From assembly GCA_029288895.1 (NCBI GenBank), contig JARIGK010000001.1:65446-129445 (forward strand): a DNA stretch of 64,000 nt, in the 5' to 3' direction. Position numbers and translations under genes: made by a program. Source of the DNA: Candidatus Adlerbacteria bacterium. Lineage in GTDB: Bacteria; Patescibacteriota; Minisyncoccia; Phycocordibacterales; SBAW01. Below, piece by piece: positions 5,635 to 23,340 of the stretch (position 1 is the first letter of the stretch; each line of letters begins with the position of its first letter). The notes under the pieces are model-generated. The model saw nothing but the letters and a program-made list of their open reading frames with translations. It was not told the DNA's origin and searched no databases.

Positions 5635-7089
5635 ATGCGTATAGTTCGCACGTTTCTGCCAGCACTGGCGCTCGTCCTTGTGTGCGTGGTTTACATGCTA
5701 TTGCCGTTAGCAACACAAGACGCAGGAGGCGCCCTCCTTTCATGTGCTGCTATAGGTGTCGTGTTGTTGGCCATACTGGCGTGGGGGTATGTGCCTAGCC
5801 CTCGCCACTGGCATGTATCCCAATGGCTGCTTGTGGCATGTATAGGTTCGGTTTTTGTATCTGTGCTTCTGTCAAAAAATTACGCCCATGCGTTATGGGG
5901 ATTTTCGTTCGACATGACATCCGCGTTCTTCCTTTTGTTTGTATTCGTACTCCCACTTATTGTGGGTGGGCTTCCGGTCCATGTGCGGAGAATTATTTTT
6001 TTGGCGTCTTGTGTATCGCTTGCATTGCTCTTGATATATCCGCTCGTGCGCTCGGAAGTGTATGTCCGCCCGTCGAACGATGCCACAATGGGAATTGAAG
6101 CTGCCTCGTATGCAGATGGCGGGACGCGTGCACTCCTTGTTGGTGTAGGGCCCAACTCATTTTTGTATGCCTGGCAAAAATACAGGCCAACTGCGGTACT
6201 CACAACGCCATTTTGGAATGAAGATTTTCCTGTAGGTGGTAGTGTGCTCGCAACACTCATGATCGAATGTGGCGTACTGAGTGTCTTGCTCTTGTGTCTC
6301 GCATACTTGTCTGCGTGTGCAGAGGAAGTATGGAGAAGTCTCACAGAGGAATATTCGATCATTAGAAAAAGTTTGTATACGTTGCCTGCGTGGATCGTTC
6401 TTGGCTCTTTGTTTGCTCTTATGTTTGCGGAGCCGTCGGCGCCGCTGGTGTTGGTGTGTGGAATGCTTCTTGGGTCATTTCGCTTTCATACAGAGCCACG
6501 GATTGTACTCGGCCCATGGACTCGCGGCGCAGGTGTTGTAGTGGGTGTTGCATACCTGTGCGTTGTGGCCTATATAGCAACCGCTGTTATATTTTATTTT
6601 TCTGCGTTCTCAAAAGTGCAAGCGCAAGATCTGACTTCGGCGCAACACACAGGAGAATATTCCTATCAGCTCTATAAAAATCCACAGACTGCACGATTTC
6701 TTTCGCAGACCTTCCGTTCGCTTGGTCATGAACTTGGGCGGACGCACGTAGGGCAGGACACAATCCAAGCTTCCTTCCATGCTGCGAGCGCATATGCCCG
6801 TGCAGCAACGGTGCAAGAACCACAGAATGGCCAAAATTGGAAATTGCTTGGTATCAGTCTCGCAGAAGAATTAGCGCTGCAAAAAAATGCCGCCTTTTTT
6901 AGTGAAGGTAAAAAAGCTTTTGATACAGCAGCGGTGCGTATTCCTGCTGACCCATCAATTTTCTTTTTCGAAGCCCAGCTATATATCTTGGCAGGGGACA
7001 GAGAGGGTGCAAAGTCCTTGCTTGATAAAGCGCTTGCTTTGAAGCCTGACTATACCGAAGCAAACGATCTGCGTACGGCCATACAGTAG
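5635..7089 (+). CDS. Polytopic membrane protein, O-antigen ligase/Wzy-like, with a C-terminal TPR-like region.
   Basis: At least 10 predicted TM helices followed by a soluble C-terminal helical-repeat region (KALALKPDYTEAND). A TATACT box lies 6 nt upstream of the ATG. Confidence 0.45.
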   Translation: MRIVRTFLPALALVLVCVVYMLLPLATQDAGGALLSCAAIGVVLLAILAWGYVPSPRHWHVSQWLLVACIGSVFVSVLLSKNYAHALWGFSFDMTSAFFLLFVFVLPLIVGGLPVHVRRIIFLASCVSLALLLIYPLVRSEVYVRPSNDATMGIEAASYADGGTRALLVGVGPNSFLYAWQKYRPTAVLTTPFWNEDFPVGGSVLATLMIECGVLSVLLLCLAYLSACAEEVWRSLTEEYSIIRKSLYTLPAWIVLGSLFALMFAEPSAPLVLVCGMLLGSFRFHTEPRIVLGPWTRGAGVVVGVAYLCVVAYIATAVIFYFSAFSKVQAQDLTSAQHTGEYSYQLYKNPQTARFLSQTFRSLGHELGRTHVGQDTIQASFHAASAYARAATVQEPQNGQNWKLLGISLAEELALQKNAAFFSEGKKAFDTAAVRIPADPSIFFFEAQLYILAGDREGAKSLLDKALALKPDYTEANDLRTAIQ

Positions 7090-7098
7090 GGCACTACT

Positions 7099-8643: not shown

Positions 8644-8648
8644 GTACT

Positions 8649-10091
8649 ATGAATCTCACGAAATTTTTCTCGACGCGGTCCGGTATACAAGTGTTAGTTG
8701 CGGTTGGTCTGTGTGTACTTGTAGGTTTTTTTATTTTTCTGGGAGAGCATAGATCTGCGTCGTCTGGCCCATCGTTTGGAGTTTGTCGCGGGTGCAACGT
8801 CCTTATCATAGGCGTTGATACACTCCGTGCTGACCGTTTGCATGTCTTTGGCTATAGCCGAAATACGACACCAACCATTGATGCCCTTGCCGCAAAAGGG
8901 TACGCCTTTTCAAATGCAATAGCGCCAGCAAGTTGGACTGTCCCTTCGTTTATGTCTATTTTTACGGGCACGTACCCTTCGGTGCATGGTGTTACAAATA
9001 AGTTTATTTCGTTTTCACAAGACCAAAAGCAACTTTCAAATTTGAAAATAACGGCTCCGCAAATCCAAACGCTTGCAGAAGTGCTCAAAGCAGAAGGCTA
9101 TGCAACGGGTGGCTTTACTGGAGACGCGGGCGTGTCGGGAAAGTTTGGATATAACCTTGGGTTTGATGCGTATACCGATGAGAAAGCGTTTGGAGGCTTA
9201 GAAAACAGCAAGAGCCACGCGTTAGCGTGGGCAGATCAGCTCGGCGACAAACATTTCTTTATGTTTTTCCACGGCTACGATTTGCATGGGCAATCGGCTC
9301 CGTCTGCTACAAACCCGTTTCTAGACTCTACGTATCACGGGCCCTACACCGGTAGTCCTCAAGAAGAATCAGTGTTGCGCGAGGGCGTGTTGACGCCCAA
9401 AGGCATCACGCTGACTCCGCAAGATGCGAAGTTTTGGAGCGATACGTATGACGGCAAAGTTGTACAGGCAGACAAAGAATTACAAACATTTTTGACAGAC
9501 ATGTCCGTGCGCGGATTGCTTAAGAACACACTCATCGTGTTGGTGTCAGACCATGGAGAGGAGTTTTATGAACACAAAGGGTTTGACCACGGACATACGC
9601 TCTATGACGAACTCGTACACGTCCCGCTTATCTTCGTTGTCCCAGGGATGCAGGGAGGCCAGATAATCAAGAGCCAAGTCAGTACCATGGATGTTATGCC
9701 GACCATCCTCTATCTCCTTGGGATTACCCCGCGCGGAGAGCTGTCCAATCAGTTGTCAGGCAGAGCGAATCTGGCATCGTACTTTACTGCCACATCAACG
9801 AAAGGGTATGACGTTTTTTCGGAAACTAACTACCGCGGGTACACCTATAAAAGGAGCGTGCGCACAGCGGATGGATGGAAGTATATTTTGACCCTCGAAA
9901 CCGGGAAAGAAGAACTATATAACCTCACTGTCGACAAAGGAGAGCATACGAATCTTGTTTTGACAGACGCAGATAAGGCAGAACAATTACGTGTTGAATT
10001 AAGGAATCATCTCGAGCAGGATCTACACTACGATATGTCGAAAACGCCAGCCGTTACATGCCTCCCTGTATATGACGGGGAATGTAAGTAA
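8649..10091 (+). CDS. Paralogous alkaline-phosphatase-superfamily enzyme with a Thr nucleophile motif, membrane-anchored.
   Basis: IIGVDTLRADRLHVFGY and SWTVPSFMSIFTGTYP motifs. It lies 6 nt after the previous paralog. Confidence 0.6.
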   Translation: MNLTKFFSTRSGIQVLVAVGLCVLVGFFIFLGEHRSASSGPSFGVCRGCNVLIIGVDTLRADRLHVFGYSRNTTPTIDALAAKGYAFSNAIAPASWTVPSFMSIFTGTYPSVHGVTNKFISFSQDQKQLSNLKITAPQIQTLAEVLKAEGYATGGFTGDAGVSGKFGYNLGFDAYTDEKAFGGLENSKSHALAWADQLGDKHFFMFFHGYDLHGQSAPSATNPFLDSTYHGPYTGSPQEESVLREGVLTPKGITLTPQDAKFWSDTYDGKVVQADKELQTFLTDMSVRGLLKNTLIVLVSDHGEEFYEHKGFDHGHTLYDELVHVPLIFVVPGMQGGQIIKSQVSTMDVMPTILYLLGITPRGELSNQLSGRANLASYFTATSTKGYDVFSETNYRGYTYKRSVRTADGWKYILTLETGKEELYNLTVDKGEHTNLVLTDADKAEQLRVELRNHLEQDLHYDMSKTPAVTCLPVYDGECK

Positions 10092-10148
10092 TCAAGAGCG
10101 TTTACAGGGCTCTTTGTGGCAGCTCCGGGTATACGGTATTCTTCTAGT

Positions 10149-10745
10149 ATGAGTACTCGTCCCATTCCTCGTCTTGTAGTCGGAGGAATACTGATGTGCC
10201 TTATATTTGCTCTCGCTCTTCAGGGTGGCGAGGCGTCTGCTGCAACACTTACGTCTCCGGTGACAGTGACAGGTAGTATTAGCGTGCTCGGCACGCTCTC
10301 CAAAGGTTCTGGTACATTCGTCATTGACCATCCGCTCGACCCTGCGAACGAATTGCTGTACCACTCCTTCGTCGAATCACCAGATGTAAAAAACCTCTAC
10401 GACGGCATCGCCACACTCGACAGCAAGGGGGAAGCGACAATTGTGTTGCCAGATTATTTTCTTGCACTCAATAAAGATTTTCGATATTTAGCAACACCCA
10501 TTGGCGCTCCTATGCCTACCTTGCATTTGGGCAAAGAGGTGGGCAAGCGCTGGTTTAATCTCTTTGGGGCAATACAATTTAAAATAACGGGTGGTGTGCC
10601 GGGCGGCCGCGTCTCATGGCAAGTCACGGGCATCCGCCACGACAAATTTATCGAGGACAATCCTATCCAGGTTGAAGTAGAAAAGACTGACGACACACTG
10701 GTAAAGAAGGGTGAATATCTTTTCCCTGAATTCTATGGACACTAA
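10149..10745 (+). CDS. Secreted protein with a conserved 'GSGTFVIDxPxDPANxLLYHSFVESPDVKN' domain (paralog 1 of 3).
   Basis: Signal/TM segment followed by the core KGSGTFVIDHPLDPANELLYHSFVESPDVKNLYDGIATLDSKGEATIVLPDYF, which is nearly identical in the next two genes. Confidence 0.55.
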   Translation: MSTRPIPRLVVGGILMCLIFALALQGGEASAATLTSPVTVTGSISVLGTLSKGSGTFVIDHPLDPANELLYHSFVESPDVKNLYDGIATLDSKGEATIVLPDYFLALNKDFRYLATPIGAPMPTLHLGKEVGKRWFNLFGAIQFKITGGVPGGRVSWQVTGIRHDKFIEDNPIQVEVEKTDDTLVKKGEYLFPEFYGH

Positions 10746-11292
10746 ACGAAACACTCTAAGAATTGGTGTAAGTATGTTAATACTGGCGATTCCCGTGCTC
10801 GCGTCTGCTGTCACCCTCACTGGAAACATACAATTTAAAGGAAATTTGGCGATAACAGGGGCGCTCTCGAAAGGCTCCGGCACCTTCGTCATCGATGATC
10901 CCATTGACCCTGCTAACAAACTGCTCTATCACTCGTTCGTCGAGTCGCCAGATGTAAAAAACATCTACGACGGCATCGCAACACTCGACAGCAAAGGGGA
11001 GGCAACTATTGTGCTGCCAGATTATTTCGATGCGTTGAACAAGGATTTTCGGTATGAATTTTTCCCGCTCGATAAGGCCGATCCAGGGCTCTATATAAAA
11101 ACTGGCGCCGACGTTGTGAAGAATCAATTTACGATTGCGGGCGGGACGCCAGGCGACCGCGTTTCGTGGCAAATCACTGGCATCCGCCACGACCCGTACA
11201 TTCTTGCGAACCCGGTTGTGGTAGAGGTTCCGAAAACCAACGATACTATTGTAAAAAAAGGCCAGTATCTATTTGAGGGGTATGAAAAATAA
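10735..11292 (+). CDS. Secreted conserved-domain protein (paralog 2 of 3).
   Basis: Same core domain with more than 85% identity over about 70 aa. The start is uncertain; either ATG 10735 or ATG 10774. Confidence 0.5.
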   Translation: MDTKRNTLRIGVSMLILAIPVLASAVTLTGNIQFKGNLAITGALSKGSGTFVIDDPIDPANKLLYHSFVESPDVKNIYDGIATLDSKGEATIVLPDYFDALNKDFRYEFFPLDKADPGLYIKTGADVVKNQFTIAGGTPGDRVSWQITGIRHDPYILANPVVVEVPKTNDTIVKKGQYLFEGYEK

Positions 11293-11986
11293 GACGATAT
11301 ATTTTTTTGCGCTTGCTTCACTTATATGTATGCCCATGGTGTGCGTGCACGCCTACGCTGAAGGCGGATATTACGGCCAAGGATATTATGAAGGGTATTA
11401 CCAAAGCTATTATCAGCCGTACTATCAGCCGTACTATCAGCCAACGTATCAAACGGTATTTACAAAAAATGCTGCTGCAAGCAAGACGGTGGCGGTTACG
11501 GGTAGCGTATCAAAAAGCTCCGGTACCTTCGTCATTGATGACCCAATCGACCCCGCTAACAAATTGCTTTACCACTCGTTCGTCGAGTCGCCTGACGTCA
11601 AAAACATCTACGATGGCATCGCAACACTCGACAGCAAGGGGGAAGCGACAATTGTGTTGCCCGATTATTTCGATGCGTTGAACAAGGATTTTAGATATCT
11701 GACGCGCCCAATTGGCGCCCCTATGCCAAACCTCTACATCAAAGATGAAGTGCACGACAACACATTTAGTATCGGTGGCGGGAGCCCTGGTGGACGTGTC
11801 TCATGGCAAGTCACTGGGATTCGCCACGATGCGTATATCGTTGCACACCCTATTGTCCCGGTGGTGGATAAAAGCAAAGACACAATCGTCGACCGTGGGA
11901 GCTATATCTATCCTGCAGGATTCACTTCATTTGGGAGTACATTCTTTGGATCTCTCTCGACGTTTTTTAATGCTATTTTCCACTAG
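11282..11986 (+). CDS. Secreted conserved-domain protein (paralog 3 of 3) with an N-terminal Tyr/Gln-rich low-complexity stretch.
   Basis: GGYYGQGYYEGYYQSYYQPYYQPYYQPTYQ followed by the same core domain. Confidence 0.5.
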   Translation: MKNKTIYFFALASLICMPMVCVHAYAEGGYYGQGYYEGYYQSYYQPYYQPYYQPTYQTVFTKNAAASKTVAVTGSVSKSSGTFVIDDPIDPANKLLYHSFVESPDVKNIYDGIATLDSKGEATIVLPDYFDALNKDFRYLTRPIGAPMPNLYIKDEVHDNTFSIGGGSPGGRVSWQVTGIRHDAYIVAHPIVPVVDKSKDTIVDRGSYIYPAGFTSFGSTFFGSLSTFFNAIFH

Positions 11987-11989
11987 CGC

Positions 11990-13177
11990 ATGAAGAAGTA
12001 TGTGCTTGTTGCGTGTGCCGGTGCGCTCCTTGTAGGAAGCGCAGCGCTGGTGTATGTAAAACACATACATACAACGCCCGAAGCATATGCCAAGAGTATT
12101 GTGGCTCGCTGCGCCAGTGCAGCCGACCGCACGCAGTGTTATGTGGACGAAGTGCCAAAACTTCTCGACCAAGGGGTAACGTTTGAACATTCGTTTGAAG
12201 TTGCGTACGACATCCAAGAACTCGACCAGACAGGCGAGTACTGCCATCGCATTGGGCACGCGCTTGGTGGGGCGGAAGTAGCAAAAGATCCTACTAAATG
12301 GAAAGAAGTTGCGCGCCGCACGCCGCTTGGCGAATGTCTTGCAGGAGGCTTGCATGGTGCGTTTGAAGAACATTTCAGTAAAGAGTCCCTTGCGCCTTCA
12401 GATATCCCAGCATTTAAACAAGAGATGCGCGGATTTTGCGATGTTCAGGCAGATATTCCATCATCGCCGGTGGATTTGACCATGTGTTCGCACGGTTTAG
12501 GCCATCTCTTTGTGTATGCAACAGCTGGAGATGTACAGGAATCGATCGACTTATGTTCTTCGATGAACTTTAAAACGGAAGGCGGCGTCACTGCAGAAGG
12601 CCAAGAGCTTTCCTGTTATGACGGTATGTTTATGCAGTTGCTTGAACCGCACGACAGTGAAGACGCAGCTCTTATTAAAGGGCATGAGCAAACAAAAGAT
12701 ACCGTGGGCGCCTACTGCAATGCATTCGCGCCGCTCGTACAAGCTGCATGTATCGCCCGAAGTGCCCCATTGTTTTATAAAGACTTAAATGCTGGTGCGC
12801 CCAAGCCGCTCGATTGCAATATGCTTGATAGCCAGCGTCGGCGTGACTCGTGCCTTTCGACACAGCTTCGTCTCTTTGCCCGTGATACGTTTTTTAACCT
12901 TGATGCCACGGACGACTACTGCGCTACCTACCCACAAAATAAACGGGGGTGGTGTTATGCGTCTGCTGGTTCGTTTGCGTTTATGTCCGGGTACGATTAC
13001 GAGCAGCCCTATCGTTTTTGTGCGCGGGCAGCAGCGCTTGGGGTTGGCGACCAATGCTATCAGACGCTTGCGAACATCATCCCTAACACATTCCGCGAAG
13101 ATGATCCGTCTCGTAAAGAGTTGTGCGAAAAGCTGCCCAGCGCTTATGTGCAGGCATGCATTGCGCAGCAGCAGTAA
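11990..13177 (+). CDS. Membrane-anchored, extracytoplasmic Cys/His-repeat protein (family member A). About 7 repeats of C-x-x-G... including C-x-HG-[LI]-GH.
   Basis: N-terminal TM segment. Motifs CHRIGHALG, CLAGGLHGAF, CSHGLGHLFVY, CYDGMFMQ and others. 16 Cys in total. Confidence 0.55.
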   Translation: MKKYVLVACAGALLVGSAALVYVKHIHTTPEAYAKSIVARCASAADRTQCYVDEVPKLLDQGVTFEHSFEVAYDIQELDQTGEYCHRIGHALGGAEVAKDPTKWKEVARRTPLGECLAGGLHGAFEEHFSKESLAPSDIPAFKQEMRGFCDVQADIPSSPVDLTMCSHGLGHLFVYATAGDVQESIDLCSSMNFKTEGGVTAEGQELSCYDGMFMQLLEPHDSEDAALIKGHEQTKDTVGAYCNAFAPLVQAACIARSAPLFYKDLNAGAPKPLDCNMLDSQRRRDSCLSTQLRLFARDTFFNLDATDDYCATYPQNKRGWCYASAGSFAFMSGYDYEQPYRFCARAAALGVGDQCYQTLANIIPNTFREDDPSRKELCEKLPSAYVQACIAQQQ

Positions 13178-13183
13178 AGCCCG

Positions 13184-14779
13184 TTATTTTCTAAGCTCGA
13201 GTAGTCGTGCTGTAAGTGGTGCGAATACTTCTGTGTGAGCGCGCGCATCCAGTGCTAGAAGGGTAGATAGTGCGTATGCAGATTGTAGGTCGCGTTTGTA
13301 CGAAAGTAGTGTATAGCCTGTAGGTGCAAGCTCCACTGTCGAGCGACTTTCAAATAATGATGTGCCAGGGGGGAATGGGCCCGTCTCATTTCCGATCATA
13401 AAGAGAGATGAAATGCCGCCGCGCAACATAAAAAACACGCTCGTCCGGTATGGGTCGTACGTGCCGGTAACATAGGTGCCAAGCGAAAGGTCATCGAAGT
13501 AACCTACGACACGCTCAAAATGTGCGCTTCCTGTGCGCGAAGCTAATACAAGGTTCCGAAGCGTTTCGAGTTGTTCGGCCCCAAGCATCGCAGGGAGTGT
13601 GCGTTGGTCTGTTGTAGTGAGGAGCCGTTCCGCACTTTGTATAAATGCTCGATACGATTGCTCGCGAGGCACATCTTCACTAATGAGTTCGTTTTGTGCA
13701 GCGAGCATATCATGTACGGTGGATGAGTTAGAAGGCATGAGCGGGACGATAGGATGTTGTTGCAATGTTTCGCGTGCGTCTTGTATCGACAGCAGAAGCC
13801 CAACGTCCTGGCCAAAATCTTGGCAAATATAGGCATTAAATGATTGGTTGGAATAGGTCGCCCCAGTGTTGTAGTACGCCTTGCTGTAGCGCACGGGTAT
13901 TTTCTTGAGGTCGTAAAAGAAAGAGTCGTTCAAGATTGTAAAATATTCCGCTGTCACGCCAGAAAGTATGGACGCGTGTGTTCCCACATCAACATATGCA
14001 GGAGTAAATGACGGATAGCATCGTGAATGAGAAAGTGCAACGGTGGTCGTGTCGGTAAGCGTTACGCCGAGGCGTGCAGTAAACGCACGCGCTGCAGTTT
14101 TGATATACGCCACATCGCTCGGGAGGTCGGTCGATGCAGGTAATGTGTTCTGTGCTGATGGAGAAGAGGCTCCTGATGGAGGCCAATACCTCCAGTGTGC
14201 GCACTCGAGCACGTTACCTTCTGCACACGAGTAGCGCCTATTTTCTTCTTTTCTCATTGCGATGAGCCCTTGTCTGCCTCGTTCGAGCACTGACATGATA
14301 TACCCTGAGCTTGTAGTGCCGCCAAAGGATTGAATGGTAGTTTTTTTGCCGACATCGAGCGCCGCAATATCGTGTGCGAGCGCTGCATCATATGAATCAA
14401 AAAGTGCGAGAAGGGCAGCGTGGTACGCGTCTGCATGTGCTGATGTCGGCTCTGTAAGGAGTGCTCTTCGTTTTTCTTCTGCCGAGGCGCTAGCTTCAAG
14501 AAATGCGATTGGGTAGACACCGTGGCTCCATGAGCCATCCGAATCGTCGCTGAAGGGGAGTACTGCAACGCGCGCACTTTTTTCGAGCTCTTGTGTCGCC
14601 GTGATCATATCAGGCAGCGATGTTCGAGGAAGCGCCATCATGGGATATTCCTCATGTTGCCGTGCATATCCGGCCCATCCATCTGCGTGTGCGGAGTAGA
14701 AGAAATACCCTAGAACTATAAGGATACAAAGGAGAAGTGCGAGACCAAGGCGGAGTGCACGTATTCTTGCAGCCTTCAT
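13184..14779 (-). CDS. 531-aa N-terminally membrane-anchored protein of unknown function (paralog of 16615..18246).
   Basis: Single N-terminal TM segment. Shares AEPT(S/Q)xHAxxYHAAL(L/H)AL and other blocks with the 546-aa paralog. Divergent from the cassette 2 peptide, sharing the AGTATACT palindrome. Confidence 0.55.
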   Translation of the reverse strand: MKAARIRALRLGLALLLCILIVLGYFFYSAHADGWAGYARQHEEYPMMALPRTSLPDMITATQELEKSARVAVLPFSDDSDGSWSHGVYPIAFLEASASAEEKRRALLTEPTSAHADAYHAALLALFDSYDAALAHDIAALDVGKKTTIQSFGGTTSSGYIMSVLERGRQGLIAMRKEENRRYSCAEGNVLECAHWRYWPPSGASSPSAQNTLPASTDLPSDVAYIKTAARAFTARLGVTLTDTTTVALSHSRCYPSFTPAYVDVGTHASILSGVTAEYFTILNDSFFYDLKKIPVRYSKAYYNTGATYSNQSFNAYICQDFGQDVGLLLSIQDARETLQQHPIVPLMPSNSSTVHDMLAAQNELISEDVPREQSYRAFIQSAERLLTTTDQRTLPAMLGAEQLETLRNLVLASRTGSAHFERVVGYFDDLSLGTYVTGTYDPYRTSVFFMLRGGISSLFMIGNETGPFPPGTSLFESRSTVELAPTGYTLLSYKRDLQSAYALSTLLALDARAHTEVFAPLTARLLELRK

Positions 14780-14801
14780 CAGAGACAGTATACTTTACTG
14801 C

Positions 14802-15002
14802 ATGAAGAGGAGATTCGCCCTCATACCACTATTTCTCCTTTCAGCCCTTGCTGTGGGAATGCTTTCTTCAAAAAGAGATGCAGCACTGAGCTGTGTCGAG
14901 CCTGGGGTGGGCGCATCTGCTCCGAACATGTCGAATTCTTCGTCGGTACAAGCAGAAGAGTCAGATCGAGTCTACAATATTTGGTGCGGAGGCGTTTTCT
15001 AA
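14802..15002 (+). CDS. 66-aa exported or membrane-anchored small peptide (cassette 2 peptide). C-terminus ...DRVYNIWCGGVF.
   Basis: Paralog of the 2782..2973 peptide. AGTATACT lies 7 nt upstream of the ATG. Confidence 0.6.
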   Translation: MKRRFALIPLFLLSALAVGMLSSKRDAALSCVEPGVGASAPNMSNSSSVQAEESDRVYNIWCGGVF

Positions 15003-15011
15003 AACGACGGT

Positions 15012-15335
15012 ATGGATGATGCACATAGGACGTCCGCGTGGCCCGCACTCGGGCGCATGCTTGATGATATCCAACCCAAAGGCCTTGGCATTTTGTTGCC
15101 CCCGATACTTCAACTCCATCGACCTGCATATCTTGAAGCGCGTGCGCGCACTATTGTAGTCGCTGTTGCGCTTCCGTCGCAGATTTCCGCACTTACTGGT
15201 CTGGTTGAAGAAGCTTCGATCGAAGCTGTTATAGCAACACAAGGAGCGGCGAATGAATTTGCTGCCGATTTGGAGCGAGTAGGGCTTACAACAAATATAA
15301 AAGCCTGGTTTATTGTCGACGAAAAACCACTATGA
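15012..15335 (+). CDS. 107-aa protein of unknown function (cassette 2 middle gene), paralog of 2973..3422.
   Basis: About 40% identity to the cassette 1 middle gene. Its stop overlaps the ligase start. Confidence 0.55.
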   Translation: MDDAHRTSAWPALGRMLDDIQPKGLGILLPPILQLHRPAYLEARARTIVVAVALPSQISALTGLVEEASIEAVIATQGAANEFAADLERVGLTTNIKAWFIVDEKPL

Positions 15336-16618
15336 CACCGCTCTCCCGCGCGCTTTCATTTGCGATTGAAAATCCGCATTCTGATTTTTACCGCCGCAAG
15401 TACGGCAAAGACTTTCGTGCGTATATACAAAAAGAACTTTCGGAGATTCCATTTCTGACAAGACAAGAAATAGATACAACGCCCGTGTTTGACCGCATCT
15501 TTGTTCCAAAAGAAATGGTCCGGTTTGTGCGTGCGACCTCAGGTTCGTCCGGGCGCGGCGCAGTTCTATTTCCAGCAGTCGAAGAGCCGGAGATGATGGA
15601 CTTCCGACGTTCGCTCGGGTTTAGCGGCGACGAAGGTGAGGCCGGGCGCTACTTCGGGCCCTATTTTAAAAAAGAAGATGCATATTCACTGTTGATGTTT
15701 TCTACGTCCGATGCTTTGCATCAAGCCTATTTTTCCGACTACGCTGGCCGGAGGGTTATCGCGGGCGACTATCAACACGCAGAAAAGACAGTTGCACTGT
15801 CGGCAGCTGCAGGCGTTGATTCGATATTTTCATTTCCGTCGCCGCTTATCAGCATTGCAGACACTTTCAAAAAAGATGGTTTTGCCTCGCGCATCAAGAT
15901 GATTGTGCTCATGGGTGAGCGTATGACAGAACTCCAGCGCAGAACGCTTGTTGCGCAGTTTCCTCATGCAAAGATCGTCACGCTCTATGCGTCCACTGAT
16001 GCACATGGAACGATGGGGAATACGTGCCCTGCTCGCGTGACAGAATTTCCTAACCATATTCATCCGTTTCCAACATATGCGCTTGAAGTTATTGACCCTG
16101 AGTCGGGCATGGCGCTCCCTATGCAGGCAGGCACGGAAGGAGAAGTGGTAATCACGGCACTCACGCCGATGGCGTTTCCGCTCATTCGATATCGCACCGG
16201 AGATTATGCGGTCGTGCACGCCAGCGGCCCATGTGCGTGCGGCAGTACTGAGCCGCTTCTTGAGATTTTGGGCAGAGTAGAACTCGATCGCATTAAACTG
16301 CTCCCGTATGGCGGCGTGAGCGTTGCGGCTATCGAAGAAGCAATTGCTGCCCTTCCATTTCCTGTTCTTGATTTTACTGCTGCATGGTCACAGAAGGGTC
16401 CGCTGCCGGGACTCTCGCTCGTGCTCTATACCGACGGGTCTGTACCTCATGATTCTGTCGCGCTCGTGGCAGAGAAAATCCAAGTCAGCGCGACCCATAC
16501 GTATCACGATGTAGTGGTGCGTGGTGCTGTCTTGCCACTTACAGTTTCTTTTGAACCTGCAGCGGGTGCGCGTGGTCCGCATCATGCAAAGCCTAAACGT
16601 CTGCAGATTATCCGTTAG
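15332..16618 (+). CDS. PaaK / F390-synthetase-like adenylate-forming enzyme (cassette 2 ligase).
   Basis: RATSGSSGRGAV P-loop, YRTGD hinge, 428 aa. About 50% identity to the 3419..4702 product. Confidence 0.75.
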   Translation: MTPLSRALSFAIENPHSDFYRRKYGKDFRAYIQKELSEIPFLTRQEIDTTPVFDRIFVPKEMVRFVRATSGSSGRGAVLFPAVEEPEMMDFRRSLGFSGDEGEAGRYFGPYFKKEDAYSLLMFSTSDALHQAYFSDYAGRRVIAGDYQHAEKTVALSAAAGVDSIFSFPSPLISIADTFKKDGFASRIKMIVLMGERMTELQRRTLVAQFPHAKIVTLYASTDAHGTMGNTCPARVTEFPNHIHPFPTYALEVIDPESGMALPMQAGTEGEVVITALTPMAFPLIRYRTGDYAVVHASGPCACGSTEPLLEILGRVELDRIKLLPYGGVSVAAIEEAIAALPFPVLDFTAAWSQKGPLPGLSLVLYTDGSVPHDSVALVAEKIQVSATHTYHDVVVRGAVLPLTVSFEPAAGARGPHHAKPKRLQIIR

Positions 16619-18246
16619 TGGCTAGTGTCTGTATGAGTGTGCGCGTAGCGAGCGCGAGCATCGAGAAGGGACGAAATAAAGCCTCCAAATACCTGTTGGC
16701 GGATCTGTATATCTTGGAGAAGTGTCTTTTGCAATTCGTTTCTTGAAAGTTCTTTGCTCACGTCGTGTGTATATGAACGGATAGTGCCATTAAGCAATGC
16801 ATTATTCGAATCGGATGCGGTTGCGCGCACCTCGACGAGTGAGCGGAAGATGGGCTCCACCGTTCTATTATTGAGTGCAAATAATTGCGAAAGCCCGCTG
16901 CGTGCAATAAGAAATGCTTGCGGCGAGCTTTTTCTGTATTGATATGGAATATAGCTGCCGACTTGGAGGTCGTCGAAATATCCAAGCACTTCGGCGAGAT
17001 CGGCGCTACGCGCTCTGCTTTGGGCTACTAGTTCGGTGAGACGCGCGGCTTCTTCGCTGCTGCCGAGATAGTGCGCTAACGCATCTATCCCGTAGATGCG
17101 CACCAGCATGGACGATGCTGATATAAACGCATTGTAGGTGCGTTGCGTGTATACATTTTCTTGCAGCACGTGTTTTTGTGCCTGTATAAATTGCTGCGCC
17201 GTTGGTGTCAGAGAGCCGGAAAATAGAAACGGCTTGGTTCGAAGAGACGCCGAGAGATTTGAAATAGCAAGAACGTCGCCGATGTCTTCGCCTGCATCAG
17301 GGCACAAATACACGTTGAAGGGCTGATACGTAAATGTGTCGCCTGCGCTGGCGAGCGCGTGGTAAAACGGATGGTCGGTACGGGTCGTGTCGTCGAGATA
17401 TATGTCGCTCAGTAGTACAACATTGGCTGCTGCGATTCCTGAAAGTCTGGATGAGGTCGTCGCGACTGCAAAATATATCGGCGCATAGGCGTAACATGCA
17501 GAGGACGAAAGTTCTATAAGAGGAGAGGAATCAAGAGAAGGATAGACTACTGTGAGTGTCTTCCTATTCTCTACCGCTTCTTCCGTGGATGAAGATTCCG
17601 ATTGAGATTCAAGCTCTTGTGCGCTATGGAGTGTGCCAAACGTTGCGCGTGCATATATGAGTGACTCGCACTGAGATGCGGTTCCTTGTTCGCACTGCCA
17701 GCGTCTGTCTTCTTGTGCGAGTAATGATTGAGCATCTGTCTGTGCGTGCGCAAGACGCTCTTCTATATGTGCGCTTGTGGTTTTGCCACTTAAAAAATCA
17801 AACTCTGCAGGATCGTTTTGTTGGAGAAGCACATTCCGCGCATTTCTCAGGTCGTCTATATACGAAGAGATAAGCGCGTGCAGTGCAGCGTGGTACATGG
17901 AGGCGTGTTCTTGTGTCGGCTCGGCAAGAAGAGCGCGTCGAGCTGTTTCGGTGCGTGGGAGTTGGTCCAAAAAACGAAATGGGTACAGCGCGTCGCGTGT
18001 GGCCTCGCCTTCGAGGTATGGAGGTACTGCAACCGCTGCGGAGAGTTTAAATTCGGACACCGCATGTGTAAGCGATTCGGGCGTACTTCCTGGGAATGCA
18101 AATAGTGGATCAAGCTGCTGCATCTGTGCGTATGCGGCCGCACTGCCTTGCATGGTGTACATTTCATGCAACCGCTCCCATGCGCCTATGCCAAAGAGGG
18201 CAGCCACCAACAGAAGGCAGAGGAGGCCGGTTTTGAGTCTATACAT
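16615..18246 (-). CDS. About 543-aa N-terminally membrane-anchored protein of unknown function (paralog of 13184..14779).
   Basis: Convergent with ligase 2, with a 4-nt overlap. Probable ATG at 18246. The track extends it to a TTG at 18255. Confidence 0.55.
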   Translation of the reverse strand: MYRLKTGLLCLLLVAALFGIGAWERLHEMYTMQGSAAAYAQMQQLDPLFAFPGSTPESLTHAVSEFKLSAAVAVPPYLEGEATRDALYPFRFLDQLPRTETARRALLAEPTQEHASMYHAALHALISSYIDDLRNARNVLLQQNDPAEFDFLSGKTTSAHIEERLAHAQTDAQSLLAQEDRRWQCEQGTASQCESLIYARATFGTLHSAQELESQSESSSTEEAVENRKTLTVVYPSLDSSPLIELSSSACYAYAPIYFAVATTSSRLSGIAAANVVLLSDIYLDDTTRTDHPFYHALASAGDTFTYQPFNVYLCPDAGEDIGDVLAISNLSASLRTKPFLFSGSLTPTAQQFIQAQKHVLQENVYTQRTYNAFISASSMLVRIYGIDALAHYLGSSEEAARLTELVAQSRARSADLAEVLGYFDDLQVGSYIPYQYRKSSPQAFLIARSGLSQLFALNNRTVEPIFRSLVEVRATASDSNNALLNGTIRSYTHDVSKELSRNELQKTLLQDIQIRQQVFGGFISSLLDARARYAHTHTDTSH

Positions 18247-18269
18247 GCGCTTCAAGTATACTAAATACC

Positions 18270-19517
18270 GTGACTATTCCGTTGTCTATGCGCCGAGTGA
18301 CGCCGCTCATTATCTCGGTCTTTATTCTTGGCGCTACTGCGTGCTACGGCTACTACACGCACCAGAGGACGCCGTACCCGGAACTCCAAGATTTGGCGCT
18401 CCATCCGCGAAGTTTCCCCGAACTCCAAACGTATTTTAAAAATCTTGCGCAACAAAAAGGTGCGCTCTATGCATACCAAATTTTGCGCGAGGCAGAGCTG
18501 CCGCCGCAGACAGACGTGCATCTCCTTGGGCACACCGTGGGAGATGAGTTGTATAAGCAGTATGGCAAAGATGCAATTTCATATTGTACGAATGAGTTCA
18601 GGAACGCGTGCTCTCATTCTGTCGTTATCGGACTTCTTCTCGAGTACGGAACGTCGGTGCTTGATGATATTAACGAGTCATGCAAAAAAGCGCCCGGCGG
18701 TATCGGCGCCTACACAATGTGTTTCCATGGGTTAGGACATGGCGTTCTTGCGTATGAACAGTACGATTTGCCGAAGACCATCGCGCTCTGCAAAAAAATG
18801 GGAACCGCGGCATATCATAACGAAGAGTATGGGCAGTGTGTTGGTGGCGCGATTATGGAAGGGATTGCCGGGGGCGGCCACGACAGGGCCTCGTGGGAAA
18901 AAGCACGTCCGCAGTATTACACTACTCAAGATCCGCTTTCGCCATGCGACCAGAGCTATATGCCACAAGAAGTCCGTACCTTCTGTTACATCTACATCAC
19001 GCCGCATTTGGTTGAGGCCGCTGGCGGCGATATGAATCATCCAGACCCGAGCGTTTTTCCAAAAGCATTCTCGTTCTGCCGGGCACTCCCCGAATCTGAC
19101 CATAACAGGGAAGTGTGCATGAACGGGTTTGGAAAAGAATTTGTTGGATGGGCTCGCCAGAGCGACCCGCGCAGCATCACAACGCTTACTGACCAAGAAA
19201 TGGAGTTGAGTTCTTCGTGGTGTGCACTTTCGGGTACTGCCAAAGATACCCGCTACTGCTTGCAGGGTATTCAGTCATATGTGTACTGGGGTGGAGAAAA
19301 TGACCCGCGCCCATCGGTCCGTTTTTGTTCTTTGTTATATGCGCAGGATCCAGACTCTGGGTCGACCTGTTACGAAGATTTGTCGCGTCTTATCGCAAAA
19401 TATGTTGTTGATCCGGATACGCGCAAAGCAACATGCGCATTGTTGCCTGAGTCTGTGCAACACGAATGCATGACATTTAAACAAACGTGGAACGGCGAGC
19501 CCGATGTGCTGCACTGA
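18270..19517 (+). CDS. Cys/His-repeat exported protein (family member B).
   Basis: GTG start 7 nt after AGTATACT. N-terminal TM segment. Motifs CSHSVVIG, CFHGLGHGVLAY, CVGGAIMEG, CMNGFGKEF, CLQGIQSY. Confidence 0.55.
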   Translation: MTIPLSMRRVTPLIISVFILGATACYGYYTHQRTPYPELQDLALHPRSFPELQTYFKNLAQQKGALYAYQILREAELPPQTDVHLLGHTVGDELYKQYGKDAISYCTNEFRNACSHSVVIGLLLEYGTSVLDDINESCKKAPGGIGAYTMCFHGLGHGVLAYEQYDLPKTIALCKKMGTAAYHNEEYGQCVGGAIMEGIAGGGHDRASWEKARPQYYTTQDPLSPCDQSYMPQEVRTFCYIYITPHLVEAAGGDMNHPDPSVFPKAFSFCRALPESDHNREVCMNGFGKEFVGWARQSDPRSITTLTDQEMELSSSWCALSGTAKDTRYCLQGIQSYVYWGGENDPRPSVRFCSLLYAQDPDSGSTCYEDLSRLIAKYVVDPDTRKATCALLPESVQHECMTFKQTWNGEPDVLH

Positions 19518-19527
19518 TATAGCCCAC

Positions 19528-20604
19528 ATGAGCGGAGCAATTACTAGGACAAAACAGTATACGGTAGGTCTCTTGTGTATAGCGCTTGTCGTATGCGCAG
19601 GGCTACTGCTGTATTCGAGATCTGCCGCCGCATCTCTACCAACGTTTGATTTACATACGCACGATGGTCTCGTGCAAGCAGAATCATTCTGGAACAAAGA
19701 GATTGCGCGTGTTGGCGGAGAAAAAGCGTACACTGAATTTCTCGAATTCTACGCAACTTCGACGCCTCAAGATCAGCATACTGCTGCGCATATCTTTGGC
19801 GGCAGTTTATTTACAGACGAAGGAGTGCCCGGGCTCGCGGTGTGTGACACATCTTTTTCGTACGGCTGTTTCCACGAATTCCTCGCGCGCGCGATACAGC
19901 AAAACGGACTCGGCAGCGTCGACATGCTTAACGAAGCGTGTTTCCAAGCGCTGGGGCCGGGGAAGTCACTTTCCTGCGCGCATGGGTTAGGCCACGGGAT
20001 TCAGTCGTACCTTGGATACAATAACGACGCGCTCAAAAAAAGCTTAGGTATTTGTAAAACTTTGCCGTACGGCGACCCAATAGGAGGCTGTCCAGGCGGC
20101 GTATTTATGGAATTCAATATGCGTACGATGGGATCTACGTCGGGCATTCCGACGCGGCCACTTGAGCCGGGTGGTTGGTACTATCCATGCAACACCTTAT
20201 CCGTTGACGACAAAGCAGTCTGCTACTACTGGCAAACACAGTGGTGGGCACAGGTTTTGAAAGGGCAAGGAAAGAATACGGATGAGTCGTTTGTAACGAT
20301 GGGGAGATTATGCGAAAGTATTTCTTCTTCGTATCGAGAAAAGTGTTTTTCCGGTATTGGCACCCTTATAGGCATTGATTCAGATTTTGATGTTGAGAAA
20401 GCAGGTACGTTATGCAGAGAAACCTCTCCTCTAGAAAGTCAGCAGAATGTGTGTCTTATAACCGGCGCAAGCTCTTTTTTTGCTGAGCCTACAGCCCGAG
20501 CTCGAGCGTCAGGTGTGTGCTTGAATATTGCAGAACCCTGGTACACGCGTTGTGTGCGATCTTCTTTAGGAAAATCAGAAGTACCGCCCCCTATGGGAGA
20601 TTAA
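19528..20604 (+). CDS. Cys/His-repeat exported protein (family member C).
   Basis: CAHGLGHGIQSY, CPGGVFMEF, CFSGIGTLIG. TGATAT -10-like box 7 nt upstream of ATG 19528. Confidence 0.55.
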   Translation: MSGAITRTKQYTVGLLCIALVVCAGLLLYSRSAAASLPTFDLHTHDGLVQAESFWNKEIARVGGEKAYTEFLEFYATSTPQDQHTAAHIFGGSLFTDEGVPGLAVCDTSFSYGCFHEFLARAIQQNGLGSVDMLNEACFQALGPGKSLSCAHGLGHGIQSYLGYNNDALKKSLGICKTLPYGDPIGGCPGGVFMEFNMRTMGSTSGIPTRPLEPGGWYYPCNTLSVDDKAVCYYWQTQWWAQVLKGQGKNTDESFVTMGRLCESISSSYREKCFSGIGTLIGIDSDFDVEKAGTLCRETSPLESQQNVCLITGASSFFAEPTARARASGVCLNIAEPWYTRCVRSSLGKSEVPPPMGD

Positions 20605-20610
20605 TACACT

Positions 20611-21846
20611 ATGACTGCGTTGCATCCAGAAAAAAAAATCTCATTGCGCGTACGCATCCTTGGGTTTGCTATGGTGTTTGTGCTCGCTGCGTTTTTTATT
20701 GTTGGGGCAAACCCGACGCTTTCCCAAAGCGCGGCACACCTTACGGCAAAAGCGTTCGTAATGTATTGCACGAAGCAGACTGACAATGCTGCGTGTTACG
20801 AACGTACCGTACCGCGGCTGTTATATATAAGCCCCATCAGCAGTGTCTTTTCAGTGGTGCGCGAAATCCAAGCGCAAGATTCGTCGTATCGTTTTTGCCA
20901 TGTACTTGGACATCAGCTTGGTGTGTTTGAAGTGCAGCGCGACCCTAACCATTGGATGGATCTTTTGCATAACAACCCGCCAGACGGCCTGTGCTCCAAC
21001 GGGTATATCCATGGCGTTATGGTGCAGAAGTTTAGTGAGACAGTATTTACTCCTGCACAAATTGATGCGATCGTCCCAGACCTCTCCCGGGCGTGCGAAC
21101 CGTCGCCGGGGTGGAACCCGAGCGATCTTGATAAAGCAATGTGCTACCACGGTATAGGGCATGTCCTCACGCACATGACAGACGCGAATATGCCGCTGGC
21201 AGTTTCGTACTGTAAACAAATTGCGATCAAGGGCAATGAAGACTACAGCCGGGTGTGTATTTCTGGAGTATTTATGCAGATATTTCAGCCCCTTGAGCCG
21301 GAAGATTACGCGCTTATCGCACGCTTGCCTGTGAAGCCGACAAAAGAAAATCTCGCATCGTTTTGTAGTGCGTACGCGACAGAGGAAGAGAGGAGTGCGT
21401 GTCTTGGTGAAGGGTGGCCGCTCTATCGCGAACAATTACAAACAGCAGAGGGGATAGAAAAGTTTTGCACGACCAGCACCGTACCCTCAACACAAAAAAA
21501 TTGCTTTATGACGGTGTTCTCCATTGGCGCACGCGGGTCTCTGGCTGATCCAGGGCCGCACGAGGCGCTCTGTACTTCATTGCCGGCGCCATATGCAGAA
21601 GAGTGCCGCGGCATTTTGGCTGAAGCGTTTATCGAAGAAGACAGAACTAAGGTCGCGAGTGCCGCTGCAGTATGCAGTCGTGCAGAAAGTAGCAGCGCGC
21701 AGGACGCCTGTTATGAATATCTGCTTGCCCGTGCAGCGTTTACCTTTGGTAATGACAAGAGTGCGCTGGAGCCTCTCTGTAAGGTATTTCCTGCATCGTG
21801 GGCTGCCCGATGCGAGGCGGGCGAACGGCCTGAAATTCAGCAATAG
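20611..21846 (+). CDS. Cys/His-repeat exported protein (family member D).
   Basis: CHVLGHQLG, CSNGYIHGV, CYHGIGHVLTH, CISGVFMQI, CFMTVFSIG. Confidence 0.55.
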   Translation: MTALHPEKKISLRVRILGFAMVFVLAAFFIVGANPTLSQSAAHLTAKAFVMYCTKQTDNAACYERTVPRLLYISPISSVFSVVREIQAQDSSYRFCHVLGHQLGVFEVQRDPNHWMDLLHNNPPDGLCSNGYIHGVMVQKFSETVFTPAQIDAIVPDLSRACEPSPGWNPSDLDKAMCYHGIGHVLTHMTDANMPLAVSYCKQIAIKGNEDYSRVCISGVFMQIFQPLEPEDYALIARLPVKPTKENLASFCSAYATEEERSACLGEGWPLYREQLQTAEGIEKFCTTSTVPSTQKNCFMTVFSIGARGSLADPGPHEALCTSLPAPYAEECRGILAEAFIEEDRTKVASAAAVCSRAESSSAQDACYEYLLARAAFTFGNDKSALEPLCKVFPASWAARCEAGERPEIQQ

Positions 21847-21874: not shown

Positions 21875-22393
21875 ATGAAAAAATTCTGGACTCTGTTGCT
21901 GTGGAGCGCGGTCTGCTTGCCGCTTGCTGTCTCTGCGCATAACACCGGCCGGTCATTCGAGAAGCAGATCGGCAACTACCTTGTTGATATTGGCTATAAC
22001 GTCGAGACTGAAATAGTCGCTGGCGAACCAGTCTATTTTGATTATGAGCTGTATCAGCGCGAACCAGCCCCGGGCGATGCTGCATATAGCGATGTGTGGG
22101 TGCGTATCTCACAAGCCAGCACGACGCTTTTTGCAACTGGCATTGCGCACATGACGTCTGGGCAGACAGGAATGATGTACACCTTTGATAGGCCCGGAAC
22201 ATACACTATGAGTGTCCGATATGAGCGGGGAGATACAACGCTTGCCGAAACGTCATTTCCGCTGGAAGTTGCGCCGGGAGGCCCTGCATCACCATCAGTC
22301 CCATATCCGACCCTCCTCATAGGGGCAGTAATTCTTTTGTGTGGAACGGTATTTCTCCTCTATAAGCAGAGGCGAGCGCGTGCTATCGTGTAG
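21875..22393 (+). CDS. Small exported protein with a signal peptide, a beta-sandwich-sized domain and a C-terminal TM anchor. The mature N-terminus is predicted to begin with His (CopC/YcnI-like architecture).
   Basis: Predicted cleavage LAVSA|HNTG. A domain of about 110 aa follows, then LLIGAVILLCGTVFLLYKQRRAR. Confidence 0.4.
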   Translation: MKKFWTLLLWSAVCLPLAVSAHNTGRSFEKQIGNYLVDIGYNVETEIVAGEPVYFDYELYQREPAPGDAAYSDVWVRISQASTTLFATGIAHMTSGQTGMMYTFDRPGTYTMSVRYERGDTTLAETSFPLEVAPGGPASPSVPYPTLLIGAVILLCGTVFLLYKQRRARAIV

Positions 22394-22395
22394 GT

Positions 22396-23340
22396 ATGCG
22401 CTGGTCGAATTTCTTCAAATACAACAACATCGTCCCTATTACGCTCTCGTTGTTGCTGCTGTCGTTCGGGACAACGCTTGCTGCAAGTCCAGACATCCGC
22501 TCGGATGTGGCAGCAAGTGTGCTTTCGACACAAACCAAAGTTGTTTCGATTGATAATACCTACCTCGTCAATAAAGATCTTTCCACGTACACGCCGCGCG
22601 CCGTCATTTCGAATGTGACTGAAGACTCTGATTTTTATTACGTGAACTATGCATTTAATACGATTGATATCAAAGACTCTATTTGGCAGGACGTAACAAA
22701 AAACGAAACGATAAAAGTCCAAAAGGAGGCGTTGAAGGGCGGCGACTTGGGGCTCTACGTCACGCACGAATTGCGCCAGCGCATCGACCGCGAACTTGAG
22801 TTGCTGCGCGAGACCCAAGATATCGAAAAAAATCATGTCTCGCAGGCGGTCGTTGCGACTGTGTACGGCGGGTTGATAGGGAAGTTCCTCGATGATAGTA
22901 CGCATACGCTTCCGGGCTATGTGCCTGTTGTGACGCCGCCACCCCCTCCGCCCTCAGACGACGTGGCGCCAGCGGATCCGCAATCGTCGGCACAACCACA
23001 GACGGCGCCACAGCCATCGCACGGCACAGGTATACCTCCAACGATACAAGTCCTTGGCGACAACCCATCACATTTGGATGTCGGGGTCACGTATTCAGAC
23101 CTTGGCATTGTTGTGACTGATTATCTTGGGCACGACCTTGGGTACACCATTTATTTTGATGGCGTTAAAACAACCGAGATCCAACTCGATACACGAACGG
23201 CAGGTACGCACACGATTCGCTATGTTGCAGTCGATACCGACGGCAATACAGCCGAGGCAACGCGCACCGTTATTGTTGGGAACCCGGCAGCTGACGCTTC
23301 CTCAACCCCAGCGACATCGTCGGCACCGACCACGCCGTAA
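22396..23340 (+). CDS. Membrane-anchored protein with a Pro-rich linker and a C-terminal bacterial Ig-like (DUF5011/HYR-like) domain.
   Basis: PPPPPPSDDVAPADPQ linker. C-terminal segment IQVLGDNPSHLDVGVTYSDLGIVVTD...HTIRYVAVDTDGNTAEATRTVIVGN. Confidence 0.5.
   Translation: MRWSNFFKYNNIVPITLSLLLLSFGTTLAASPDIRSDVAASVLSTQTKVVSIDNTYLVNKDLSTYTPRAVISNVTEDSDFYYVNYAFNTIDIKDSIWQDVTKNETIKVQKEALKGGDLGLYVTHELRQRIDRELELLRETQDIEKNHVSQAVVATVYGGLIGKFLDDSTHTLPGYVPVVTPPPPPPSDDVAPADPQSSAQPQTAPQPSHGTGIPPTIQVLGDNPSHLDVGVTYSDLGIVVTDYLGHDLGYTIYFDGVKTTEIQLDTRTAGTHTIRYVAVDTDGNTAEATRTVIVGNPAADASSTPATSSAPTTP

Follow-up and report, generated by a model that had tools for sequence, protein, structure and literature searches.

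Exported helical-repeat proteins with a conserved five-histidine site and a predicted link to copper in Candidatus Adlerbacteria and related Patescibacteria

Four paralogous genes and a small partner gene

We analysed a 64,000 nt stretch of a Candidatus Adlerbacteria genome (assembly GCA_029288895.1, contig JARIGK010000001.1, positions 65,446 to 129,445; hereafter the window), which contains four genes for exported proteins rich in Cys and His, named here CH1–CH4, and a small partner gene, Y, situated 3′ of CH4. CH1 (11990..13177, 395 aa) has an N-terminal anchor, 18 extracytoplasmic Cys residues and the five-His set described below, and scores 357 bits against the family profile. CH2 (18270..19517, 415 aa, 127.7 bits), in which the His of the third helix is displaced by one turn (C-S-H type), is the first gene of a tandem unit, in which CH3 (19504..20604, 366 aa, 88.6 bits), with seven Cys pairs, overlaps it by 14 nt; CH4 (20611..21846, 411 aa, 412 bits), which has nine Cys pairs and is the protein that was modelled, starts 6 nt after CH3; and Y (21875..22393, 172 aa) closes the unit. 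All five genes are on the + strand, and the four open reading frames (ORFs) of 366–415 aa that an initial annotation had placed at 11990 and at 18270–21846 are present as described. When the copies from related loci were clustered, CH1–CH4 fell into subfamilies c1, c2, c3 and c4, respectively, whilst a further subfamily was termed E; the tandem genes of the window therefore form a c2-c3-c4-Y unit.

The pairwise identity of CH1–CH4 in an alignment of the four is 20–27 %, identifying them as true paralogs, and 21 columns of this alignment are invariant, including 13 Cys and two His-containing motifs. These motifs were located by motif search together with conservation in a sample of 365 distinct full-length CH relatives from 79 genome loci, which also served for the analysis of Cys parity. 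The first, H-x3-H-x2-G, reads HRIGHALG in CH1 (12245..12271, +), HLLGHTVG in CH2 (18519..18545, +), HTAAHIFG in CH3 (19777..19803, +) and HVLGHQLG in CH4 (20899..20925, +; H97 and H101), and its two His positions are conserved in 99 and 98 % of the relatives. The second, C-x-HG-x-GH, is found as CSHGLGH in CH1 (12485..12505, +), CFHGLGH in CH2 (18720..18740, +), CAHGLGH in CH3 (19975..19995, +) and CYHGIGH in CH4 (21142..21162, +; H180 and H184). It had been noted before as a recurring C-x-HG-[LI]-GH signature, and it does recur across the paralogs; within each protein it occurs once and is not repeated. The four proteins also share a C-x-x-G-x-x-M motif, which a motif search places 3′ of the second His pair in CH4 (CISGVFM, 21256–21276, +; M222).

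Cys makes up 4.5 % of CH1–CH4, compared with 0.64 % of 18 cytoplasmic proteins and 0.69 % of nine other exported proteins from the same window. Each of the four begins with a hydrophobic segment preceded by Lys or Arg residues, in agreement with the N-terminal transmembrane anchor originally assigned to them, and in the CH4 model this segment is a helix spanning residues 12–33. Because basic residues precede the hydrophobic helix, the positive-inside rule predicts that the N-terminus lies inside and the bulk of each protein outside the cytoplasm.

Hairpin repeats and paired cysteines

The structure of CH4 was predicted with AlphaFold2 from an alignment of 56 homologues. The resulting model (mean predicted local distance difference test score, pLDDT, 93; predicted template modelling score, pTM, 0.88) is all-α with 23 helices, which after the anchor pair into approximately ten helix–turn–helix hairpins. 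Among the 50 best matches listed by Foldseek against the PDB there were solely open ARM/HEAT/PPR solenoids, the best being SPAG6-type central-pair proteins, Vac8, importins and designed ARM and PPR proteins, and the scores were weak (TM 0.13–0.27, E-values at best 6 × 10−3). Proteins of the ARM/HEAT/PPR type differ from the CH proteins in that they are cytoplasmic and have neither disulfides nor a His cluster. Profile comparison of the hairpin blocks related R8 to R10 (probability 94 %), R8 to R9 (93 %) and R7 to R9 (73 %); the C-terminal hairpins are true internal repeats, from which the His-bearing hairpins R2–R4 have diverged. The initial annotation had made its reading depend on a repeat architecture and on Cys positions shared by the paralogs: repeats are seen in the model, and the 13 Cys named above are invariant in the four.

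An even number of Cys residues beyond the anchor, mostly 14, 16, 18 or 20, was found in 358 of the 365 relatives (98 %; binomial p = 4 × 10−96). They are arranged as consecutive C-x(7–16)-C pairs with a period of ∼34 residues, the C-terminal pairs of CH4 being 252/264, 286/298, 321/332, 355/367 and 390/401; nearer the N-terminus of CH4, the predicted pairs are 53/62, 96/128, 162/178 and 201/216. In the CH4 model, the first Cys of each pair is at the end of the short helix that opens a hairpin, and the second is within the initial turns of the long helix that follows, suggesting one disulfide staple per hairpin that would stabilize the fold outside the cell. As the count is even in 98 % of members, the Cys residues are probably paired rather than free zinc-ligating thiols, and so would be structural staples and not metal ligands. 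In the alignment, CH2 and CH3 re-wire the predicted disulfide that neighbours the His of the third helix. An oxidation system that could form these bonds is the MdbA-like oxidoreductase with VKOR, in which genomes of the Candidate Phyla Radiation (CPR) are reported to be enriched (bioRxiv 10.1101/335083). The ∼seven Cys-initiated repeats counted originally are thus borne out as an architecture but not in number, which is 7–9 Cys pairs (14–18 Cys) on ∼10 hairpins. Similarly, the Gly at +3 from Cys holds for three consecutive helices (C128/G131, C178/G181 and C216/G219 in CH4) and not for the C-terminal repeats. The broader proposal of an expanded, exported, metal- or disulfide-rich repeat family is upheld, in that the proteins are disulfide-rich, plausibly metal-binding and conserved in their Cys positions across paralogs.

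The same proposal had loosely likened the CH proteins to LanC-like α/α-toroid zinc enzymes, which they resemble in size, in being largely helical and in having conserved motifs with Cys, His and Gly. However, the LANC_like profile (PF05147) gave no match at E ≤ 1 in the four paralogs or in 114 members of the family; more generally, no Pfam family was matched consistently by the 114 members or by CH1–CH4, NCBIfam returned nothing for the CH proteins, and a PDB sequence search with profiles built from the four-sequence and 114-member alignments found nothing even at E ≤ 10. Furthermore, for a model with a pLDDT of 93, the 50 best Foldseek matches listed are open solenoids and include no toroids, and the even Cys counts imply paired residues, whereas a LanC-type zinc site needs two free Cys thiols and one His. 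As such, we consider it very improbable that these are LanC-like enzymes, and this part of the initial annotation was dropped.

Another comparison is with the Hcp proteins of Helicobacter (HcpB and HcpC) and mitochondrial COA7, which like the CH proteins are α/α solenoids, exported or located in the intermembrane space, with ∼30–36 residues per repeat; tandem α/α hairpins of the ∼30–40 residues seen in Sel1-like, Hcp and COA7 proteins are present in CH4, about ten of them in the model. Hcp and COA7 carry one short-range disulfide per repeat, in COA7 Cys28–37, 62–71, 100–111, 142–150 and 179–187 (PMC8892353), and the CH counterpart would be the C-x(7–16)-C pairs every ∼34 residues with their even totals. 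Membership of the Sel1 or TPR families was nevertheless rejected: the Sel1 profile (PF08238) had no match in 114 CH members, and TPR_8 appeared in two of the 114 at E = 0.11. Hcp and COA7 are also absent among the 50 Foldseek matches listed for CH4, and they do not have the N-terminal membrane anchor, the five-His site, the cupredoxin partner or the tandem arrays of the CH family. The CH family is new to curated databases but of a known kind, the exported, disulfide-stabilized α/α solenoid; new are its conserved five-His site, a near-obligatory cupredoxin partner and a conserved tandem paralogy.

A conserved set of five histidines

In CH4 numbering, H97 is conserved in 99 % and H101, H180 and H184 each in 98 % of the 365 relatives, as are G183 (100 %) and G219 (99 %). 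A fifth His, on the helix between the two pairs, is found at one of two sites separated by a helical turn, 134 or the more N-terminal 130, and the two are nearly exclusive (H134 alone in 301 relatives, H130 alone in 58, both in two and neither in four). CH1 and CH4 are of the H134 type, CH2 and CH3 of the H130 type, and all five slots are filled in 352 of the 365. The complete set, H-x3-H, one movable His and C-x-H-G-x-G-H, sits on three successive hairpins, 2–4, in each of which the His residues fall within the first two turns of the second helix (C+1/+2 and C+5/+6) and have small Gly residues as neighbours. M222, on the next helix, is Met in 66 % and Asn in 23 % of relatives. Degenerate copies lose several His at once, with H101D, H180R and H184N occurring together in three loci, and four and five slots lost in loci L036 and L015, respectively. 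Judged by this conservation, the pattern is the one expected of a metal or catalytic site rather than of a variable binding surface, and the row of second helices suggests that the five His cluster as one functional metal site.

A His cluster on an exported protein might also belong to a zinc-dependent surface hydrolase (a peptidase, glycanase, nuclease or lipase), each paralog serving its own substrate in scavenging for an auxotrophic cell. CPR bacteria depend on external nutrients, and envelope enzymes are encoded nearby, including two sulfatase-family proteins and an SLT-domain protein. Against this, there is no HExxH motif or conserved acid–base residue beside the His, neither fold nor sequence searches matched a hydrolase, and the cupredoxin-like partner described below would be unexpected; we therefore view hydrolase activity as unlikely.

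His-only sites in all-helical proteins are familiar from the type-3 copper centres of tyrosinase and hemocyanin, in which an H-x3-H pair is joined by a third His from a neighbouring helix. The CH proteins differ from these in having five conserved His rather than six and a solenoid rather than a four-helix bundle, and no sequence or fold match was found.

Distribution and gene arrays

A word-indexed search returned 551 CH homologues from Adler-, Kaiser-, Pace- and other Parcubacteria, all of them annotated as hypothetical and none with a Pfam domain; in an exhaustive profile search, the family comprised at least 6,020 clusters at 50 % identity (E ≤ 1 × 10−3), 3,602 of them at E ≤ 1 × 10−10. 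The set of 79 loci came from a scan of one genome per species; with gene starts taken from a simple ORF caller and organism labels as deposited, all 79 are labelled CPR/Patescibacteria apart from generic labels on some automated metagenome-assembled genomes. Every member that was traced to a named organism belongs to the CPR/Patescibacteria, mainly to the Parcubacteria. No CH relatives were found on viral contigs, and no description of the family was found in the literature.

Counted by ORF clustering within ± 10 kb of each locus, the 79 loci hold 364 CH copies, with a median of five and a maximum of ten per locus. Among adjacent CH pairs, 193 of 207 are on the same strand and the median gap is − 4 nt. 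A recurring order is observed, namely c2, c3, c1 or c4, sometimes E-type copies, and then Y, with c2 followed directly by c3 in 31 loci and the full triad present in 25. CH2-CH3-CH4-Y of the window, with spacings of − 14, +6 and +28 nt, is exactly this recurring core, and as far as gene order and sequence tell, CH2-CH3-CH4 appears to be an ancient, co-transcribed set of paralogs rather than a recent local expansion. In a scan of the window for promoters and terminators, promoter-like sites were below and terminator-like sites ∼2 standard deviations above the shuffled expectation, with none convincing. Elsewhere in the family, single polypeptides with 5–11 CH modules were seen (P0145, of 3580 aa, P0229, P0259, P0243 and P0267), and in one protein (P0186) a Wzy_C O-antigen-ligase membrane domain precedes a complete CH module with its own anchor helix, which is either a real fusion or a merge made in gene calling.

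A cupredoxin-like partner domain in relatives

Approximately 35 small proteins encoded near CH genes consist of a membrane anchor and a cupredoxin-like domain with invariant W-P-A-S-x-x-H-P-x-H and G-x-W-x-x-H-D-H motifs, and they are linked to the CH proteins through fusions: in 46 loci, 84 CH proteins, nearly all of the E subfamily, carry it as an N-terminal fusion to the CH module. Elsewhere the domain and the CH protein are split between adjacent genes, and the domain is present, fused or standalone, in 54 of the 79 loci. A reciprocal metagenome scan that started from the cupredoxin motif found CH in 72 of 80 loci, the other eight being contigs of 1.1–3.5 kb, and 46 of its 108 cupredoxin ORFs were fused to CH. 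In related Adlerbacteria, a fused cupredoxin-CH copy lies just upstream of the T genes, a triplet described below. Single examples of the domain outside the window include L009:4920-5330, L042:11767-12162 and L059:17960-19432, and one protein (P0253) carries a single cupredoxin-like domain followed by two CH modules.

When the fused domain was compared with Pfam, two of five fusions matched Cupredoxin_1 (31.8 and 28.1 bits; cutoff 27) and one of five matched Cu-oxidase_3 (23.4 bits; cutoff 21). A PDB profile search gave amicyanin (E = 1.3 × 10−8) and, over the HDH segment, two-domain laccases. In the amicyanin alignment, the ligand Cys92 is replaced by the Asp of HDH and the positions of His95 and Met98 are not kept, such that the His...Cys-x(n)-His-x(n)-Met set of blue (type-1) copper proteins is missing. 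By these alignments, the domain is a predicted cupredoxin fold that has lost its blue-copper Cys, His and Met ligands.

In multicopper oxidases, a motif of the HDH type provides ligands to the trinuclear cluster. The partner domain shares with domain 1 of these enzymes, as with amicyanin, the cupredoxin fold, and it can be aligned with two-domain laccases over its G-x-W-x-[YF]-H-D-H segment; the peptide W-Y-H-D-H occurs in a bacterial laccase (PMC10536042). In contrast to multicopper oxidases, there is a single cupredoxin domain rather than two or three, the motifs are HP.H and HDH rather than four H-x-H, and the domain is fused to an α-solenoid where those enzymes have further cupredoxin domains.

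The residue at the M222 position is changed from Met to Asn in exactly the cupredoxin-fused subfamily, an observation that bears on whether the CH proteins could be COA7-type solenoids that bind haem or act in thiol redox chemistry, with His/Met ligation and electrons passed to partners such as copper chaperones. COA7 and Hcp have one disulfide per repeat, Cys spacings of 8–11 and His/Met haem ligation, and COA7 acts on copper-relay proteins (PMC8892353); the CH proteins, too, have a conserved His and Met in most members. The loss of Met in the fused subfamily argues against it, as does the want of a Sel1 or TPR match in any of the 114 members, and five conserved His exceed the need of an axial pair. 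CPR bacteria also generally lack haem synthesis. Overall, a COA7-type function seems quite unlikely.

Two further families adjoin the CH arrays. The f5 family (L046:3362-3889 and 18 others) comprises small anchored proteins, often encoded first in an array, whose C-terminal β domain has a distant likeness to the cupredoxin-like domain (hhalign probability 84 %), with two conserved Cys and without the His motifs. A family of 360 aa proteins (L066:2904-3983, on the − strand, with others in L038, L045 and L070) had no Pfam or NCBIfam match and contains HH-I-V-L-F and A-H-T-H-P motifs, reminiscent of the CuH and CuM ligand motifs in peptidylglycine and dopamine monooxygenases.

The partner protein Y

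Y has a signal peptide ending in AVSA, an A-x-A type end that is followed directly by a His (H22), the predicted first residue of the mature protein, which is invariant in 25 sequences and conserved in at least 90 % of 68; other conserved residues are E29/E30, Asp38 and W75. Its AlphaFold model (pLDDT 88.8) shows an immunoglobulin (Ig)/FN3-like β-sandwich and then a C-terminal transmembrane helix with a basic tail. A single-sequence search recovered Y itself only, and its relatives came from a profile search; Y was detected by tblastn in 41 of 83 loci, and in 26 of 27 loci carrying Y it is no more than two genes away from a CH or cupredoxin gene. Foldseek matched Y to generic FN3 and PKD folds, with CrdA at rank 37. 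The C-terminal residues 146–167 give a sub-threshold match to the LPxTATN sortase sorting signal (20.7 bits; cutoff 32), and a sortase gene is present in the window (47110-47790), so Y might be processed by sortase and not just anchored in the membrane.

The organization of Y is reminiscent of YcnI, which also has a signal peptide followed by a conserved His, a β-sandwich, conserved Glu and Trp residues and a C-terminal transmembrane helix, and which binds Cu(II) through His27, Glu50 and Trp137 (10.1101/2021.06.11.448128). Unlike YcnI, Y has no match to DUF1775 and resembles generic FN3/PKD folds; membership in the YcnI/CopC family is unsupported by both Pfam and Foldseek, and copper binding by Y is suggested by analogy. 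Y may work like YcnI though it is not of that family.

A predicted extracytoplasmic copper system and its alternatives

We propose that the CH proteins and their partners form an extracytoplasmic five-His metalloprotein system, probably a copper system, with metal binding predicted from sequence patterns and from likeness to known proteins, and we give this reading an even chance of being right. Were a metal bound, it would most probably be copper: the candidate ligands are all His, apart from an optional Met, the site is predicted to lie outside the cytoplasm, and the proteins are accompanied by a degenerate cupredoxin and by a protein with an N-terminal His. In such a system, a membrane-anchored solenoid, made rigid for life outside the cell by one disulfide per hairpin, would present the five-His metal site, which might work with the cupredoxin-like domain in electron or copper transfer or in a shared multinuclear site, and Y, with its N-terminal His, would be a copper-handling partner. 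The paralogs may act at the cell surface together, in sequence or on different substrates; the first two of these possibilities are suggested by the conserved c2-c3-c4 order.

Several points weigh against this proposal. Metal binding by the CH proteins is itself something that we infer from sequence, and the clustering of the five His into one site is read from helix register only. No invariant Glu or Asp stands beside the five His in the 365 relatives, and M222 is kept in just 66 % of them, with Asn in 23 %. A scan of the 64 kb window found no cupredoxin-like gene, and the link to copper rests on relatives. For the other partner, none of 25 Y-family members matched DUF1775 at E ≤ 1, and YcnI was absent among the Foldseek matches listed for Y. 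Finally, the Parcubacteria are mostly considered fermentative, and few copper enzymes are known from them.

The principal competing explanation is a metal-free surface solenoid, analogous to TPR, Sel1-like or ARM scaffolds, that binds peptides, glycans or host ligands, with the ladder of His as its contact strip and with paralogs providing different specificities for attachment or envelope assembly. Such a role would suit a fold class typical of binding modules, C-terminal repeats that vary between paralogs of 20–27 % identity, and multi-copy arrays and chains of 5–11 modules; the CH module that follows a Wzy_C O-antigen-ligase domain and a TPR-bearing membrane protein nearby in the window fit as well. 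The behaviour of the His residues, on the other hand, would be unusual for a specificity surface: all five are kept at 98–99 % across paralogs of ∼20 % identity, one of them relocates by a single helical turn, and several are lost jointly. The near-obligatory pairing with a His-rich cupredoxin likewise points to metal or redox chemistry. We regard a metal-free scaffold as rather improbable.

A more far-reaching version of the copper proposal, and one we think unlikely, places a multinuclear copper centre at the interface between the solenoid and the cupredoxin-like domain, built jointly from the five His of the former and the four of the latter (HP.H and HDH, the type of motif by which multicopper oxidases hold half of their trinuclear cluster). 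The result would be a surface copper oxidase or oxygen-reducing enzyme of new architecture, confined to the CPR, for which Y would be the copper donor, and standalone paralogs such as CH1–CH4 would pair with cupredoxin subunits in trans.

Other genes in the window

The gene following Y by 2 nt (22396..23340, +) encodes an Ig-like surface protein of 314 aa (Pfam Bact_surface_Ig-like, E = 7.7 × 10−11). The position 3′ of Y is also occupied in 14 related loci, and membership of the 22396..23340 gene in the system is uncertain.

Upstream of CH1, at 10116-11986, are the T genes, three tandem paralogs (209, 193 and 237 aa) whose products have a signal or anchor sequence and share a strongly conserved core, GSGTFVID.P.DPANKLLYHSFVESPDVKN.YDG...LDSKGEAT.VLPDYF.ALNKDFRY, and for which Pfam, NCBIfam and the PDB gave no match. 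In 16 related loci the triplet is likewise found ahead of CH arrays. A Tyr/Gln/Gly-rich low-complexity stretch occurs in the third copy. Between CH1 and CH2 lie two genes of the − strand, 13184-14779 and 16615-18255, for anchored paralogs of 531 and 546 aa (X) that are 30 % identical to each other and unrelated to CH; they gave no database match, including NCBIfam, and no PDB relatives. The gene between them (15332-16618, +) specifies a PaaK/F390-synthetase-like adenylate-forming enzyme, a 42 %-identical twin of which is found at 3419-4702 (+), and the X protein and the PaaK-like ligase co-occur with CH arrays in ∼17–19 loci. At 18255-18270, the divergent start codons of the second X gene (−) and CH2 (+) are 14 nt apart, a layout similar to that in an Adlerbacteria locus (L001, ∼23 nt); either the promoters are inside coding sequence or the starts have been set too early. 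A weak promoter-like site was seen at 18233-18262.

Further upstream, a block of envelope enzymes (5635-10091) includes a 484 aa protein with a C-terminal TPR and two anchored proteins of the sulfatase/alkaline-phosphatase family (E = 5 × 10−35 and 1 × 10−40). The rest of the window consists of CPR housekeeping genes, namely those for GAPDH, RpiB, transketolase halves, FBA, RF, PheT, GyrB, DnaE, NusB-NUDIX, RNase III, SMC and RNase R, and one for tRNA-Thr.

Implications

The CPR/Patescibacteria account for a large share of bacterial diversity; their genomes are tiny, and no function has been assigned to most of the surface proteins specific to these lineages. The CH family, which is absent from Pfam, NCBIfam and the PDB, is abundant amongst them, with typically five tandem genes in genomes of < 1 Mb. 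Should the proteins turn out to be metal-free, the family would still be a new stabilized repeat scaffold. If copper is bound, however, they would constitute a widespread extracytoplasmic copper or redox system in supposedly fermentative cells, with a bearing on how CPR cells cope with oxygen or interact with their hosts.

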